Position numbers and translations under genes: made by a program. The notes beneath the pieces were generated by a model, which was not told the origin of the DNA, made no database searches, and worked only from the letters and a program-made list of their open reading frames with translations. Below, piece after piece: positions 3,737 to 43,377 of a stretch of DNA of 64,000 bases. Where the stretch lies: positions 123,210,897 to 123,274,896 of the forward strand of contig NC_085845.1 in the NCBI RefSeq assembly GCF_035594765.1, written 5' to 3'. The stretch is from Anolis carolinensis (Eukaryota). The first letter of the stretch is position 1; each line of letters opens with the position of its first letter.

Positions 3737-4075
3737 TGTTGTGACTCAGCTGGAACCTAAGATGGACTCTGATGAGGTTTACGGGATTCAGGTTCAAAAT
3801 CAGGTTCAAAATGTTCCTGTTGTAGAAGATGAGGAACAAAGAGTGCAAGTTCATTTTCCCACAGCAATGAATGATGTTGATGATACTGAAACTAGCCAGG
3901 TGCAAATTGACTTAGAAAAGGAGGACAGTTCTCAGTCTCATAGCAAGCAGGCTGACACTAATGAGCAGGCTGACCTTGATGAAACAGAATCTTTAGATCG
4001 AGCTGACCATTTGGAATTCAGGGTTTGAAGGAGTGTGAGAATAGCAAACTTTATAAAAGTGTTGATGACTTCTTG
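3737..4075 (+). mobile_element. Truncated Gypsy-type LTR (U3 to TATA region)
   Basis: Starts TGTTGTG, followed by an acidic open frame from nt 2, an RV*RSVRIAN motif and TTTATAAAA at ~4050. Same layout as the TSD-flanked LTRs; 3' end not found. Confidence 0.55.
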
Positions 4076-10050: not shown

Positions 10051-10424
10051 ATGATTTCTTTTCTTGCAGCTTCTGGTTAAAGTAGAAGATATAAGCCTAT
10101 AATAAGAAACATATAATAAATACATTTACACAATACTGTTACAGCAGTTTGGTAGTGATACCACTTTAGGTAAAGGTAAAGGTAACGGTTTTCCCCTGAC
10201 ATTAAGTCTAGTTGGGTCCAACTCTGGTTGGTCTCATCTCCATTTCTAATCCGAAGAACTGGTGTTATCCGTAGACATGTCCAAGGTCATGTGGCCAGCA
10301 TGATTGCATGGAGCACTATTAGCTTCCTGCCAGAGCAGTACTAATCTATTCACATTTGTGTGTTTTTGAACTGCTAGACTGGCAGAAGCTGGGGCTAACA
10401 GTGGGATCTCACCCTACTCCCCAT

Positions 10425-10943
10425 GTTGTGGATGAGTCTCTGAGTAGTTGTAACAACAGGGAGTTGGAGAGTAGGCAGGCAGAAAGGTCTACTCCGGAAC
10501 AAGATCCTATAGAAGAGCAACAGCAGAAGAGGATTCGGAAAATACTTACTGAACCCACTGATGAGTCTTTTGAAGGGTTTGATGGGGATGATGGGTTTGA
10601 CAATGAAGCAGTTTCTATGAGAAGTGCTGGGAGTGACACTCATGAGGTTGTGGATGAGATGGAATGGACAAAAGTAGCAGAAGTAGGTGAGGAGCCTACA
10701 AGTAGTGGCACATTCAGAAGATCTGTTGGGAATGAAACTTGGAGGGAAGATAATTTGTCTGCTGTTTGGGAGGATGTAAGTAGAAGCAAGAGAAGGGCCG
10801 CTTGGCAGGCAAAGCAAAGAGCAGCTAGGGCAGCACAACTGGCAGCTGAGCATGGGGTGTTGTCTGATTCTAGTTTGGAGGAGAATGCAGGAGCAGCTGA
10901 GGGTGGGGCGCTGGGTGATTGCAACTCAGAGGAAGGTTTGTAA
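10425..10943 (+). other. 172-codon open frame in LTR U3; putative read-through C-terminal tail of Pol/integrase with an acidic FxGF motif
   Basis: Frame open from LTR nt 2 (part of ORF 10356..10943); contains TEPTDESFEGFDGDDGF and the basic stretch RSKRR. Function is inferred only. Confidence 0.4.
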
Positions 10944-11277
10944 TAAAAGGAGGGTTGGTTGCAATAGGAACCTTGTGACTGGCAAAGTGTATGCTGGGTC
11001 GTGATTCCTGTGAGCCCTGTGATTCCTAAACTTTGTGGATTCTTTGGGATTTGCTACTGTTCTTGGTTTGGACCTCGGATCACTTCTGGACATCGTGTTC
11101 GCTCTTGTGCCCTGACTTTGGATTGGACGTTTGACGTTGCTGCTGTATCCTGTTTGTTGTGGATGACCTCTGGACTGGCTTGACTACGACTTTACTTCAT
11201 CTTGGAACGTGTTCGCTGAAACGATAGTGAGTGTTTCTTCTCTGCCGGGTATTTTGGTTAGTGGGTTGGGATTTTTT

Positions 11278-11929
11278 TTAAAATTTTTATTAAGCTTTTA
11301 ATCTTGTAAAGTAGGATAAATTTACAACGAAAGAGTGAGAACATTTTGTTTGATAGAAAGTAGGAAAGTGAAAAAGAAAAAAGAGAGAGAGAATAGCGAA
11401 CAAAAAAAAGGGGGGGGGAGTTTTTTTGACTTCCTTCTTACTTGGATAGTCCTATAATCAATTTCCAGTCCATATTTCCTTGTTTTAATTCTACTTCCCC
11501 TCCGCCTTCTTCTTATCCCTAAGATTGTGTACTTTCAGCAAATGAGGTCTATCTTCATTTGTTTCAAGTAGTCTTTTACAATGTCCCAGTTTGTTTCTTT
11601 CTCAGGTAATCCATGGTTGGGCGTCAACCAGTATGTGAGTCTGTCCATGTTCATAATCTCCAACACTTTACACAACCAATCTACTTTTTTCGGTACCTCT
11701 GTTTGTCTCCAGTTTCTGGCGTAGACTATTCTGGCTGCAGTAACCAAAAAGTTAAATAAAATCTCTTTATTTTTATCTCTTTCTGTGTCTAACATTCCTA
11801 ATAAAAAGTATTCTGGTTCTCTTTGGATCTTCATTTTAAGTGTTTTCTGGATGGCTTCATGTATTTCTTTCCAATACTGTTGTGCTTTTGAGCACGTCCA
11901 CCAAGTGTGAAAGAAAGTTTCTTTCACAC
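11278..11929 (-). mobile_element. 5'-truncated L1 LINE (ORF2 C-terminus plus 3' UTR)
   Basis: ORF 11535..11927 reads TFFHTWWTC...TAARIVYARNW. ~20-bp TSD ttagtgggttgggatttttt at 11258-11277 and 11930-11949; A-rich tail. Confidence 0.9.
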
Positions 11930-13944
11930 TTAGTGGGTTGGGATTTTTTAGGACTTTGGCACTCTGTTTTACCTCCTTTTTGACCAGTTGGTCTGTGTTT
12001 GTTTTTGAATACTATTTTGCTGCTGTTAAGCATTTTTGATTCTTTTGAGCTGTATCTTCATTAAACTATTGTTACTTTGTACTTGGGACTGATTTCGTGG
12101 TATCTGTACCTTGACACCCCAGATTTGAACTACTAACCTTTTGGTCAGCAAGTTCAGCAGCTCAGCAGTTTAACCCACTGAATCACTGGGGGCTCCATTT
12201 TCACTATCATGAATCCACCCTCCAAAATCTTGGGATGCCTTGATTTAAATTTTATGCTGCAATAATCCAGAACATTTCTTTGAATTACTGCATTACAAGA
12301 GAACTCTAGTAGAGATGGCTTAATACTGTAGCAAGCTACCAATCCTAGGTTTGTATATGATGAAGTAGCCACAGTTAAGGTAGGATTTAAAACTAGCAGA
12401 ACTTTATACTGTAGATCTACTTTATAAGACAAAATTAAGAATGCAATCAAATCAGTTGAGGAGACTAGCTATTGTGCAGTTCTGTAAAAATATTTCCTAA
12501 AATTAGATCAAGAAAAGCAAATTGAAGATTCATGACATGCTCCTCCCCCCCCCCACACACACACTTTCACACAAAAAAAAATAGATTTTATTTCACCAAT
12601 ATTTTTGTATCTGGCAGAAGACCTGCACCATGTGATGAAATGAGATGAGAGGAAATGTTCAGTGTTCATGAAGCAGAAAATTGTATGTTGCAGTTATATA
12701 TAAAGCTTAACTTCTGGTCTACTAGGAATGTAGTTCACTGAAACTTATTTCATCGACAGCCTTCAGGCATCTGATCAGGATAAGATGTTCCAGTAAAGGA
12801 TGCAGTTGACTCTGGCCCCAGAAATGAAAGGCCAATGACTAATTTTCCAAGTTCATTGCCTGAGTATGTTCTCTTAGCCATTAGGAGAAAAACTACACAA
12901 CATAAAAGTAATCTCAGGAATGTAGGTCAGTTGGAATATTGCTGTACCGACACTTGTAAAGAAAAGGGTTGCAATGTATTTTAAAAATTCAAAGGGGCTT
13001 TTATATAGCTACTAATAAAAGATGCCAAAATGCTGTTAGCAGCAGATTTAAAGTGACTTATTGCTTGGGGTGATTAAACCCAGCAGGCTTCCTTGTTTTC
13101 ACAAGCAACATCTAGCTCTTTCTGTTTATAATTTGCCAAGATACAGGATGCATTTGCAGTTTAGAAATGTAGAGAATCTAAGCAGCAATCATAACACACT
13201 TGCTTAGTAGCAAGACATATTGAACTCCTTGGGCTTTTCTTCTGAATAAACAAAATGAGAATTATATGGTTCAAATTATTTCCCCAATGAAGCTTGGCTG
13301 CCCTTTCAAGCCTCTCCTAAGTTCATGGCTAAAGGTTTCAGCAAATCCACTGGTAGTCTTTGACTTTTTCTTCCAAAATAGAACATATCCCTCCCAAACC
13401 AAGTCAAAGATTGCTTATTGACTTGGCTTTTCATTCTGAAAATACCATTCGTTTTGTAACAGTTGCCACCAGAAGGAGGATGGTTGACATGAGAGGGCTT
13501 TTAAAAGAAGCAAAATAGTTAACAAAGACAACAAAACCTAGAAAGAGTCCTTATTCCATATTCGACTGCCCCACCACCCTTTCTGACATCAAATGGCAAA
13601 AAGGGGAGGAAAGTACAAGTAGCTTCATTGGAGCTACCCAAACTACACTTTTCTCCACTTTGGGAGGAATGTGGCAGGGGACTGCCGTGTATTGTGTGAT
13701 GGTGCACAGAAGACCCCATCCTTGCCATGCATAAAAGTGCCAAAATGGGGCAAAAATGCCCTTTGTAAAGAGATTACTAGTCCTGAATGGAGAGATCATA
13801 GGCTGAATCTGGCATATTCTTTTTTTAAAGAATGTGCTCCATTAATGAAGTGTGACCTTTCTCGAGAGTTCTCTAAACATACCAGCTTTTCCTCTTCCAT
13901 CTTCATCTACTTTGGACCTTTGACTCCTTTGTTTTGTTCATTTG

Positions 13945-14897
13945 TGTCACGACCCAGGCTGCAGAGCACCAATAACCATACACAGAGGCCAGAATCTATC
14001 TAATATCTTTATTAAGGAAATAAGTAAAGGCAATAAAAATAAGTGTAGAATATAGTTCAGAAGATAGTTCAAATATAGTCCAGGAAAACAATGTCCAATA
14101 TGAAATAGTAAGGTCCAAAGTTGTAATCCAGTAACCGAAACACTCACTTGCCAAGCAAAGTGAGGGGAGATGACAAGGTCCTTTAGTCCATGAAACTTAG
14201 ACAAGGCAAGGAAATAGCTTGATTCTTGGTACACAAAGCTTGATTCAAGGCAACAAGGAACGAGGAACAGGGACAAGATCCGTGGTAAATACTTGGCAAG
14301 GTCCGGGAAGCAAGGCAAGGTCCTGGAAAGCAAGGCTGAGTCCTAGGTAGCAAGGCAAGGTCCGTGGAGCAAAACAAGGCTGGAAACGGGAACGAAGGCT
14401 TGGAAACAGGAACGAAGGCTTGGAAGCGGGAGTAGCGCTGTCCACACACAACCTACTCCAGTTGCTGACGAATTGACTCCGCAAGATTCCTATGGGGCAA
14501 GGAACCTAAATAGGGTCTCGTTTTCCCACCAAAGAACACTTCTCTGGGGAACCAGAACCAAAAGTCAATCTCTGTGTCCAGATGCATGACTCCCTAAAGG
14601 TTCTCATGAAAGCAGTCTTAATCAGCTGAATGCCTGGCTGCGATTCTCAGGCTTCTGCGATTAGCCTGTTGAACTCCTTTTTGTTGTTGATAATAACTAC
14701 GGCGAGAAAATGGGGGAGATTCTGACTCAGGGCTTGTTTGGCAGATTTCTGGAAGGCAAACCTCCTGCAGGTGCAAGGGCTCCAATTCTGGCTGGGAAAG
14801 TCCCAATTCTGGCTGAAACGGTGGAAAAACCAAGTTTTCCTCTTCATCTGTCTCAACAGCGCTAGGAACGGGACTACATGGCCCATGAGTCATCACA
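13945..14897 (-). mobile_element. Solo Gypsy-type LTR
   Basis: TG...CA ends, 5-bp TSD ATTTG (13940-13944 and 14898-14902), minus-strand AATAAA at ~14010, internal short tandem repeats. Confidence 0.92.
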
Positions 14898-19311: not shown

Positions 19312-20174
19312 TGCTTGTGGTTGTTGCTGTTGTTATTATTTATTTATTTTTTAATATTGAGAAGTGTGACCATGGACATTATGCTTGCAAGAGGAATAGT
19401 CTGGAACAATGCATGTATACATTCTACATAGAGCTGATCTATTTAGAAAATGTTTACATATCTGATCTATTTAGAGGATGTTTATATATTTATCGAGCTT
19501 TGCTCAATACATATGCAGGGCCGGCCCCACTAATGAGGCACCTGACGCCGCCGCCTCGGGCGCAGGCCCGGGGGGGCGCCTCCCGCCCAGTGCGCCCTGG
19601 CCCGTCTGGCCTGCTAGAAAAGGCCAGACGGGCGAGCGGGAGTAGCGTGGGAGGCGGGGCCAGCTCTGACGCCGCTCCCCCCCCCCGCCCAGCGTGCCTT
19701 GGCCCTGCCTCCCACGCAGCGTGGGAGGCGGGGCCAAGGCACGCTGGGCGGGGGGGGGGGGGGAGCGGCGTCAGAGCTGGCCCCGCCTCCCACGCTACTC
19801 CCGCTCGCCCGTCTGGCCTTTTCTAGCAGGCCAGACGGGCCAGGGCGCACTGGGCGGGAGGCGGGGCACCGTCAGGGCGGTGCCCCGCCTCCCGCCCAGC
19901 CTGACGGCGCCCCCCCGGGCCTGCGCCCGAGGCGGCGGCGTCAGGTGCCTCATTAGTGGGGCCGGCCCTGCATATGTATTGAGCAAAGCTCGATAAATAT
20001 ATAAACATCCTCTAAATAGATCAGATATGTAAACATTTTCTAAATAGATCAGCTCTATGTAGAATGTATACATGCATTGTTCCAGACTATTCCTCTTGCA
20101 AGCATAATGTCCATGGTCACACTTCTCAATATTAAAAAATAAATAAATAATAACAACAGCAACAACCACAAGCA
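19312..20174. repeat. ~860-bp inverted duplication (palindrome centred at 19718)
   Basis: 19312-19579 is the reverse complement of 19907-20174, and the inner arms also pair. The right arm has a ~50-bp hairpin absent from the left arm. Confidence 0.95.
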
Positions 20175-20782
20175 GTCGCGGCCTGGAGAAACCTCCGCTG
20201 AGTCTGGCCTGCTACAAAAGGCCAGACGGGCGAGCGGGGGTAGCGTGGGAGGCGGGGCCAGCTCTGACGCCGCCCCCCCGCCCAGCGTGCCCTGGCCCCG
20301 CCTCCCACGTTGCGTGGGAGGCAGGGCCAAGGCACGCTGGGCGGGGGGGGGGAGCGGCGTCAGAGCTGGCCCCGCCTCCCACGCTACCCCCGCTCGCCCG
20401 TCTGGCCTTTTGTAGCAGGCCAGACTCAGCGGAGGTTTCTCCAGGCCGCGATTGCGGCCTGGAGGAACCTCCGCTGAAGTCTGGCCTGCTACAAAAGGCC
20501 AGACGGGCGAGCGGGGGTAGCGTGGGAGGCGGGGCCAACTCTGGCCCCGCCCCCCCGCCCAGCGTGCCCTGGCCCCGCCTCCCACGCTGCGTGGGAGGCG
20601 GGGCCAGGGCACGGGGGGCGGGGCCAACTCTGGCCCCGCCCCCTCACTATTCGCCCTGGCCCCGCCTCCCAAGCAGCGTGGGAGGCGGGGCCAGGGCACG
20701 CTGGGCGGGGCCAGGGCGCCGGTGGCGGGGGCGCTTTTCAGCACCCCCGCTTTACATCAAAAAATATCTCCGGCCGGCCCTG
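19516..20782. mobile_element. GC-rich non-autonomous hAT element, internally rearranged
   Basis: TIR CAGGGCCGGCC...GGCCGGCCCTG; perfect 8-bp TSD TACATATG (19508-19515 and 20783-20790). Confidence 0.92.
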
Positions 20783-21188
20783 TACATATGACTTGCAATC
20801 GGGCTTTTAGGCAGGGAAATGCACCCTGCCATAGTCTGAACAACAACAGGCTGGGTGGGGAGTGTTCTCCAATTCAGTTTCTAAAGATCTGTCAGATGCC
20901 ATCTGAGTATCAAAATTATTTAAATTTTTATTTGTTTCAATGTCTAGAAGTTCATCTTTGGTCATCAGGAGGTAGTCAGGCCATTCTAAATCTAGTGTGT
21001 GTTACTTCAGTATGTGGCCAGAATGAAATATTTGCCATCCTGTTTTTAAGGTAAATCTACAAGAAATTATTTTTAATGCGTACTTAGGGATTAGTCTCAG
21101 GGTTTGGTCTTTCAATGAACTCTCCCATCTCTCTGTCACACATACACAGATTCGCTACTCTTACACTATATACAGAAAAACTATGGTA

Positions 21189-42569: not shown

Positions 42570-43377
42570 TGTTGGGATCCTGCAGCTCAGCCGCTGACTT
42601 GATCCTCTTTTTCACCCAAACACCACAGGATGAACAGGAATAGTAAGTTTATTACGAAAATTGTGTGTGTGTGTGTGTGTGTAGTTTCTAATATAAACCA
42701 GTTTCAAAATACATCCATGAGCTAGATATCCAGAAATTTAACAAAAAGCAATGACCAACTCTGAATATGAATTCCAAAAATCACTTAAAACAAAAGCAAG
42801 AAACTGTAATCCAAGGTTTGTTGCACTTAAACTAGAAATATATCCAAAAAGCTTGAAAGCATGAACATGACCATAATCCAAATGCTTGAAACTTGAAACA
42901 GAATTTAAACAGGAGGACAAGGAGGACCCAAGAACATAACTCCTAACTCGAAGCTCTGAAGACAAGCAACTTGACTCATTAAAATCCAACATTGATCTCC
43001 CCACCAAACATTGACTCCACTTCCTTAAGAATACTCCCTTTTGCTCATGACATCATGCTTTCTCACACCTGGGTTCCCTTTCTTTATCTTTCAGTCTTTG
43101 GGAGCAACTAATTTTTTTCTGTTTTACACTATCCTTTCTGAGCTGTAAACGCTGGGTTATTTGTAACTGTCCTCCACATTCCTTTCAGAGTCAACGTCTG
43201 GCCGGTTCTTATGATAATCACTGCCTGCTTCCCTGACAACAGATCTACCCAAAACATTCCCAATATCTCAAAAAAACCCCCACTTTTCTTTCTCTCATAG
43301 AAACACCAGGCTGAACTGGAAAATCCTTGTCCTCATCCTCAGAGGTTTCACAAGCCTCAGTATGGGATGTGGTAACA
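42570..43377 (-). mobile_element. Old Gypsy-type LTR
   Basis: Minus strand reads TGTTACC...CCCAACA, AATAAA at ~42650, acidic frame from nt 2 (VTTSHTEACETSEDEDKDF); no TSD recognised. Confidence 0.55.

Follow-up and report, generated by a model that had tools for sequence, protein, structure and literature searches.

A conserved FxGF module resembling LEDGF ligands in the LTR-coded integrase tail of anole Ty3/Gypsy retrotransposons

The FxGF motif in a solo LTR of Anolis carolinensis is a real TIM-like module that is under selection in an LTR-coded integrase tail. The LTR lies in the stretch of 64,000 nucleotides that we analysed (the window), and the features we discuss are collected in Table 1. 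We think that the tail probably tethers the integrase to the integrase-binding domain (IBD) of host LEDGF/p75 or HRP2. The copy in the window is a dead solo-LTR remnant homologous to this tail. In intact relatives the tail is read in frame with pol and stands where the chromodomain is missing; it would stay on the integrase after protease cleavage. It could then bind the IBD, perhaps more or less tightly depending on whether CK2 has phosphorylated the linker, and the bound tail would bring the integration complex to transcribed chromatin that carries H3K36 methylation and so bias insertion.

Table 1. Positions of the LTR, its reading frame and neighbouring repeats in the window.
Feature	Position	Strand	Remarks
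Solo LTR, Ty3/Gypsy (chromovirus-related), subfamily A	10424..12116	+	TGT..ACA ends, 5-bp duplication
Left-hand CCCCA target duplication	10419..10423	+	
Right-hand CCCCA target duplication	12117..12121	+	
Later insertion in the LTR: LINE 3' fragment	11278..11929	-	20-bp duplication flanks
SINE copy, 5' part, target of the LTR insertion	10178..10423	+	
SINE copy, 3' part, same SINE as 10178..10423	12122..12180	+	
Solo LTR of family H (contains DEEENLVF)	13945..14897	-	chromodomain-bearing relative, tail without FxGF
172-codon frame with its TAA TAA; homologous to the integrase tail that the LTRs of sister subfamilies encode	10425..10946	+	
Repeat 1, TIM/IBM-like: predicted helix end IRKIL, then linker TEPTDES and FEGF	10533..10580	+	
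Decayed repeat 2, ends TFRRS	10674..10724	+	

We labelled the related LTR frames in the genome A (the window type), B, C, C2, D, E, F and G. The first-pass annotation had described the window copy as a solo LTR with a 172-codon stop-free frame and an FEGF motif, and all of this stands: the LTR runs from TGT to ACA with CCCCA at each flank, the frame holds 172 codons up to TAA TAA, and EPTDESFEGFDGDDGF begins at 10551, which puts FEGF at 10569-10580. A perfect 5-bp target duplication was also found in 22 of the best 30 LTR copies. The frame begins at LTR base 2 (10425), and from stop to stop it measures 206 codons. Its first in-frame ATG, at 10617, is 3' of the motif, so the motif could be produced solely as the end of a longer protein. 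Without the later insert, a subfamily A LTR is about 1.02 kb long. The inserted fragment, presumably L1-like, gave no significant Pfam match (its 20-bp duplication is at 11258-11277 and 11930-11949), and the SINE that the LTR split is one that we take to be Sauria-SINE-like.

The window copy is not the best example of its subfamily. The linker of its repeat 1 has 7 residues, one acidic residue short of the 8 in most A copies, and the CK2 consensus (S/T-x-x-D/E) that most A copies carry, present in the linker of the common A form and of E, is lost. At the position matching its decayed repeat 2, subfamily B reads FRGF, and D and G read FMGF or FVGF. A Pfam search of the frame, itself a low-complexity acidic tail, returned no match, and none of 2,795 candidates was a longer homologue of the 172-residue frame, which is weak evidence.

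Bare FxGF arises readily by chance, with 19 places in the six frames of the window and 101 hits in 20,000 shuffles of the motif frame. The full pattern, which we defined post hoc as a hydrophobic pair, an acidic linker of 7-10 residues and FxGF, came up in 6 of 20,000 shuffles of the window frame. A stricter pattern is absent from the remaining 124,610 translated residues of the window, and also from 138,610 residues of other host DNA. The weaker look-alikes that had been proposed did not hold up: none of the three is an FxGF motif. DEEENLVF and DSDEVYGI are present in the window, and EEKWGF is found near 43288 in a minus-strand frame full of stops. DEEENLVF is also not a variant of the motif, as it belongs to the chromodomain-bearing family H. 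The DSDEVYGI frame, at about 3750-4060 (+), is acidic and LTR-like and ends near an RSVRI motif. Elsewhere in the window, 19312-20790 is GC-rich and MITE-like, with nested near-perfect inverted repeats whose 269-bp arms are 100% complementary.

Subfamilies A and B are small and old. None of 59 exact A/B LTR starts was paired within element length, and purine-tract and TGG primer-site patterns beside the LTRs led to no A/B internal region. One pattern search covering both C and D found no internal region for these either. Four long open frames are chimeras with LINE pieces or flanks and not pol, and a match from an rve family search belongs to an unrelated env-bearing endogenous retrovirus. Loci L092-L121 (for example, C1:344650734-344654018) hold a young endogenous retrovirus of high copy number, in which an env-like frame comes after a pol frame of 1187 codons. 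Subfamily E is young, and its best 40 matches are all 99-100% identical. Full-length E copies have LTRs 5.18 kb apart, with gag and then protease-RT-RNase H-integrase between them, and a target duplication. At L143-L145, L272-L274 and similar loci, E elements stand in tandem arrays with shared LTRs and a spacing of about 5.2 kb.

It is in E that the tail can be read as part of pol. At locus L153, a 1214-codon pol crosses the polypurine tract without a stop and enters the 3' LTR in the same phase as the window frame; about 60 of the 150 rows from the E search carry the same frame, counted by eye. The integrase end is joined to FxGF at 19 of 25 loci (two stop early and four are unparsed), and a pattern of tract plus LTR gave 19 matches, six of them with integrase upstream. 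Of these six, four keep integrase and LTR in one frame, namely L166 and L173 of F and L170 and L175 of G, and two are frameshifted, L162 of C2 and L177 of G. The first-pass idea depended on a motif in frame with pol, and this is what we found in the sister subfamilies E, F and G. Subfamily A, we infer, carried such a fusion in the past, and so probably did B, C and D.

The E pol matches protease, RT, RNase H, integrase and an SH3 module in Pfam, and neither this pol nor two further E tails match Chromo in Pfam. Family H shares the tract and has its own LTR-coded tail in frame, and it keeps the chromodomain, which is also present in Podarcis relatives. The tails of H are acidic, turn basic at their end and lack FxGF, and FxGF was found in the tail of none of 25 chromodomain-type loci. 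Since H and the motif clade both run pol into the LTR, what sets the clade apart is the lack of the chromodomain and the presence of the repeats. Family H is therefore a natural control, having the chromodomain and not the motif. Very abundant young chromodomain Gypsy families whose pol runs into the 3' LTR and has a conserved RRSxRI end were also seen at the family H position in the window and at L198-L217 and L287-L311. In trees of RT, RNase H and integrase, E, F, G and C2 form one supported clade (100/99 for RT, 95/98 for RNase H and 100/99-100 for integrase). The clade lies among chromodomain-bearing rows, with Podarcis P0004 as its sister at 84/87, in trees that had no non-chromovirus outgroup.

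For the codon comparison we used one copy per subfamily from eight subfamilies, giving 28 pairs that are not independent. Over the whole frame, dN/dS is 0.18-0.51 in 25 pairs, saturated in two, and 0.71 for A-B, where selection is weak; A copies decay neutrally. In the module around repeat 1 (residues 25-52), which was chosen after the alignment had been viewed, pN is 0.06-0.26 and pS 0.29-1.05. In all 28 pairs pN is lower inside the module than outside it, so the motif is conserved at the protein level across subfamilies, as the first-pass annotation had needed it to be. By these codon counts, repeat 1 is under purifying selection across the eight subfamilies.

This bears on the possibility that the motif reflects a DNA or RNA signal conserved in the LTR, or has arisen by chance in a purine-rich U3. 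The sequence must double as an LTR, and B has amplified without repeat 1, both of which would fit. However, the synonymous sites of the module are near saturation and its amino acids are kept, and this contrast between pS and pN largely refutes the idea. B also retains repeat 2, and shuffles yield the pattern in just 2-26 of 20,000 cases. We consider a by-product or chance origin highly improbable.

The repeats show both conservation and turnover. FxGF is present in 41 of 46 A copies and at 30 of 30 E loci. Our first alignment (A2) was selected with a pattern that required FxG, so its invariant columns carry no proof. The acidic linker is 8 residues long in most A copies and in C-G, and an I-R-x-I-L/F pattern is kept across subfamilies and aligns to JPO2, a likeness of sequence in which the helix is predicted. 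The tails of sister subfamilies have one to three units of helix, acidic linker and FxGF, with two in D and three in G. A and B have kept different units: repeat 1 is found in 41/46 A copies and 0/8 B copies, which share a deletion, and repeat 2 in 0/46 and 7/8 (L086 was assigned to B by its deletion). One F copy (L163) reads FEDF and another (L166) is cut within the motif. Besides FxGF, several tryptophans and a basic cluster are invariant in the tail, and basic clusters precede repeat 1.

The ligands of TFIIS-N-terminal domains (TNDs) are described as combining a short helix anchored by hydrophobic residues (F/V/L/I) with an acidic linker that spans 8-16 residues and with FxGF, the last being required by all known LEDGF/HRP2 partners (PMC9987994). 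Fly JIL-1 is described as binding the LEDGF orthologue through FxGF (PMC6877644). We built a profile from 20 element repeats only and searched it against 177,635 PDB sequences, which gave three matches at E<=10. The first is the LEDGF IBD with JPO2 motif 1 (6EMO, E=0.0037), the second is KMT2A (2MSR, E=0.12), and the third is an unrelated protein (E=2.1). A single-peptide search of the PDB gave no matches, so these ligands were found by the profile alone. In the host, CDCA7 and CDCA7L read EIFKEDSDDESFCGF and DVFNAPSDDEDFFGF, and E reads DIFAEPSDEDSFEGF; the spacing of the host motifs is the same as that of the element repeats in two of three cases. The host genome has PSIP1 and a paralogue. 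Matches to named proteins agree with the green anole as host: the pol match is 96% identical, and one PSIP1 exon has 100% identity to two Anolis species. There is also an intronless, stop-containing PSIP1/LEDGF copy at L155 (C2:143718346-143718648), apparently a processed pseudogene.

Modelling the peptide with the lizard IBD, as had been suggested, gave a result in the expected direction that amounts to weak support. The window peptide with the anole LEDGF IBD scored 0.44 vs 0.01 for the best control, the runs agreed in at least 98% of contacts, and the partner pLDDT was at least 59. The model gave no interface bearing on the helix of the repeat. In calibration, 51 of 78 solved pairs and 2 of 108 mismatched ones reached the mark. 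At scores of 0.60 or under, only 5 of those 78 passed, whereas every one of the 4 passing mismatches fell in this range; the model was run without alignments, and this calibration does not cover peptides. Because similar complexes have already been solved, a pass shows likeness rather than binding.

With a modest PDB match (E=0.0037) and a weak complex score, one could argue that the tail is a generic acidic-aromatic disordered segment, made up of an NLS and activation-domain-like residues, and that FxGF is kept for a partner outside the TND proteins. The tryptophans and basic cluster are, after all, also invariant, and the tails of H share the acidic character and basic end yet have no FxGF. 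We find this reading quite unlikely, because the whole arrangement of helix, linker and FxGF is kept and duplicated as a unit, and because the top two PDB matches are both LEDGF ligands. The arrangement also occurs twice in each of two distant Gypsy integrases.

One of these is Podarcis P0013, in which a near FxGF motif and a full one come after the chromodomain, so chromodomain and motif are not strictly exclusive. The other came from a profile search of 1.84 billion proteins, which returned five matches, four from the motif clade and one from a distant Gypsy. This element (P0151/P0152, from Logan) has an integrase C-terminus (SH3_Tf2-1, Integrase_p58_C) with two repeats of helix, acidic stretch and FLGF at its end. 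In the protein atlas, P0152 matches integrase SH3 clusters alone, and its tail by itself stays below 0.8. As for an independent origin of the Podarcis motif, monophyly with the anole clade was not rejected (AU p=0.31). A recent capture from host CDCA7 or CDCA7L has left no DNA trace: 77 codons are identical among 167 shared residues vs about 67 expected, and identity outside the core is 0.17-0.43. The motif may have arisen by convergence or by an older capture from a host gene. It is possible, though we would not bet on it, that Ty3/Gypsy integrases in three lineages have repeatedly gained host-mimicking FxGF motifs to dock onto LEDGF-family H3K36me3 readers, with the chromodomain lost in the anole clade, and that this could account for a preference for gene bodies among LTR elements at large.

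The genomic location of the insertions shows no sign of a bias toward gene-dense regions at a coarse scale (chromosome class and flank GC). Outside the six large chromosomes we counted 10 of 104 E insertions vs 3 of 74 H insertions (p=0.24), and 1 of 59 for A/B. Flank GC is equal at 0.389, 0.391 and 0.394. These proxies are coarse, and fixed copies have already been filtered by selection; fixed insertions can hide the original preference, according to a study in flies (PMC10018349). Two uneven distributions were seen along the way. The interval C5:123.3-142 Mb, which was picked post hoc, holds 13 of 110 other A/B copies in 1% of the genome, with no cluster of the control family H. Along C1, among the first 100 of 436 matches, C/D-type LTRs are absent from 216.4-256.1 Mb and dense at 280-310 Mb.

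The missing bias at this scale would also fit repeats that bind LEDGF/HRP2, or another TND protein such as TFIIS, IWS1, Elongin A, MED26 or PNUTS, for a purpose other than site choice. This could be chromatin retention, stabilising the integrase, repair of the insertion gap, or keeping new copies transcribed. The sequence evidence is identical to that for tethering, and serial repeats are described as able to engage different TND proteins (PMC9987994). On the other hand, the tail occupies the position of the targeting domain of chromoviruses (PMC3059260), and FxGF is described as special to LEDGF/HRP2 ligands (PMC9987994). We regard binding for another purpose as unlikely.

We return to tethering by LEDGF or HRP2 as the preferred reading. 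A literature search covering titles and the beginnings of abstracts, mostly of open papers, found no description of an FxGF motif in a transposable element. To our knowledge, LEDGF interaction is regarded as specific to lentiviruses among integrases. A selected and repeated motif in a young vertebrate Gypsy makes a LEDGF-like route testable, and the same genome offers a matched control family with a chromodomain and no motif. If the reading is correct, one retrotransposon lineage has exchanged its chromatin reader for another.

Other integrases that find their sites through host proteins offer several points of comparison. The Ty5 integrase binds Sir4 through a targeting motif in its disordered C-terminus, and MLV with BET proteins is a further case of targeting. 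Ty1 and Ty5 belong to another superfamily than the anole Gypsy and use other host partners, and their targeting was shown by experiment. The Ty1 integrase uses a short motif in its disordered C-terminus to bind the host chromatin protein AC40, much like the putative role of the anole tail, and this motif is described as lying within a bipartite NLS (PMC7459421); the anole tail, too, has basic clusters before repeat 1. In group A chromoviruses of the CRM type, a putative targeting domain in the 3' LTR replaces the chromodomain (PMC3059260). We liken its CR motif to the anole tail by placement and claim no likeness of sequence; unlike the anole tail, the CR motif goes with a centromeric location in plants, and the account available to us gives it no identified partner (PMC3059260). 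Active chromoviruses are known in reptiles (PMC3670739). Fly LTR retrotransposons are reported to favour H3K36me3, and the authors propose a LEDGF-like route, stating that they have no data for such an interaction and, in the text available, naming no motif (PMC10018349).

The host proteins JPO2 (CDCA7L), KMT2A, IWS1, DPF3a and JIL-1 share with the element repeats the hydrophobic anchors, set in a helix that is predicted for the elements, FxGF, an acidic Ser/Thr linker of about 8 residues and, in several, motifs in series, as described for their TIM/IBM regions (PMC9987994, PMC6877644). Unlike in these proteins, the motif here sits in a retrotransposon integrase tail and is known from sequence, and the linker in the window has 7 residues. 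The comparison with lentiviruses concerns the host side, where the IBD and the predicted outcome would be the same. HIV integrase binds LEDGF through its folded core and not through an FxGF linear motif. Set beside lentiviral tethering as described in PMC9987994, the anole tail could, if the less likely idea of repeated gains is correct, be a retrotransposon counterpart that works by linear-motif mimicry.
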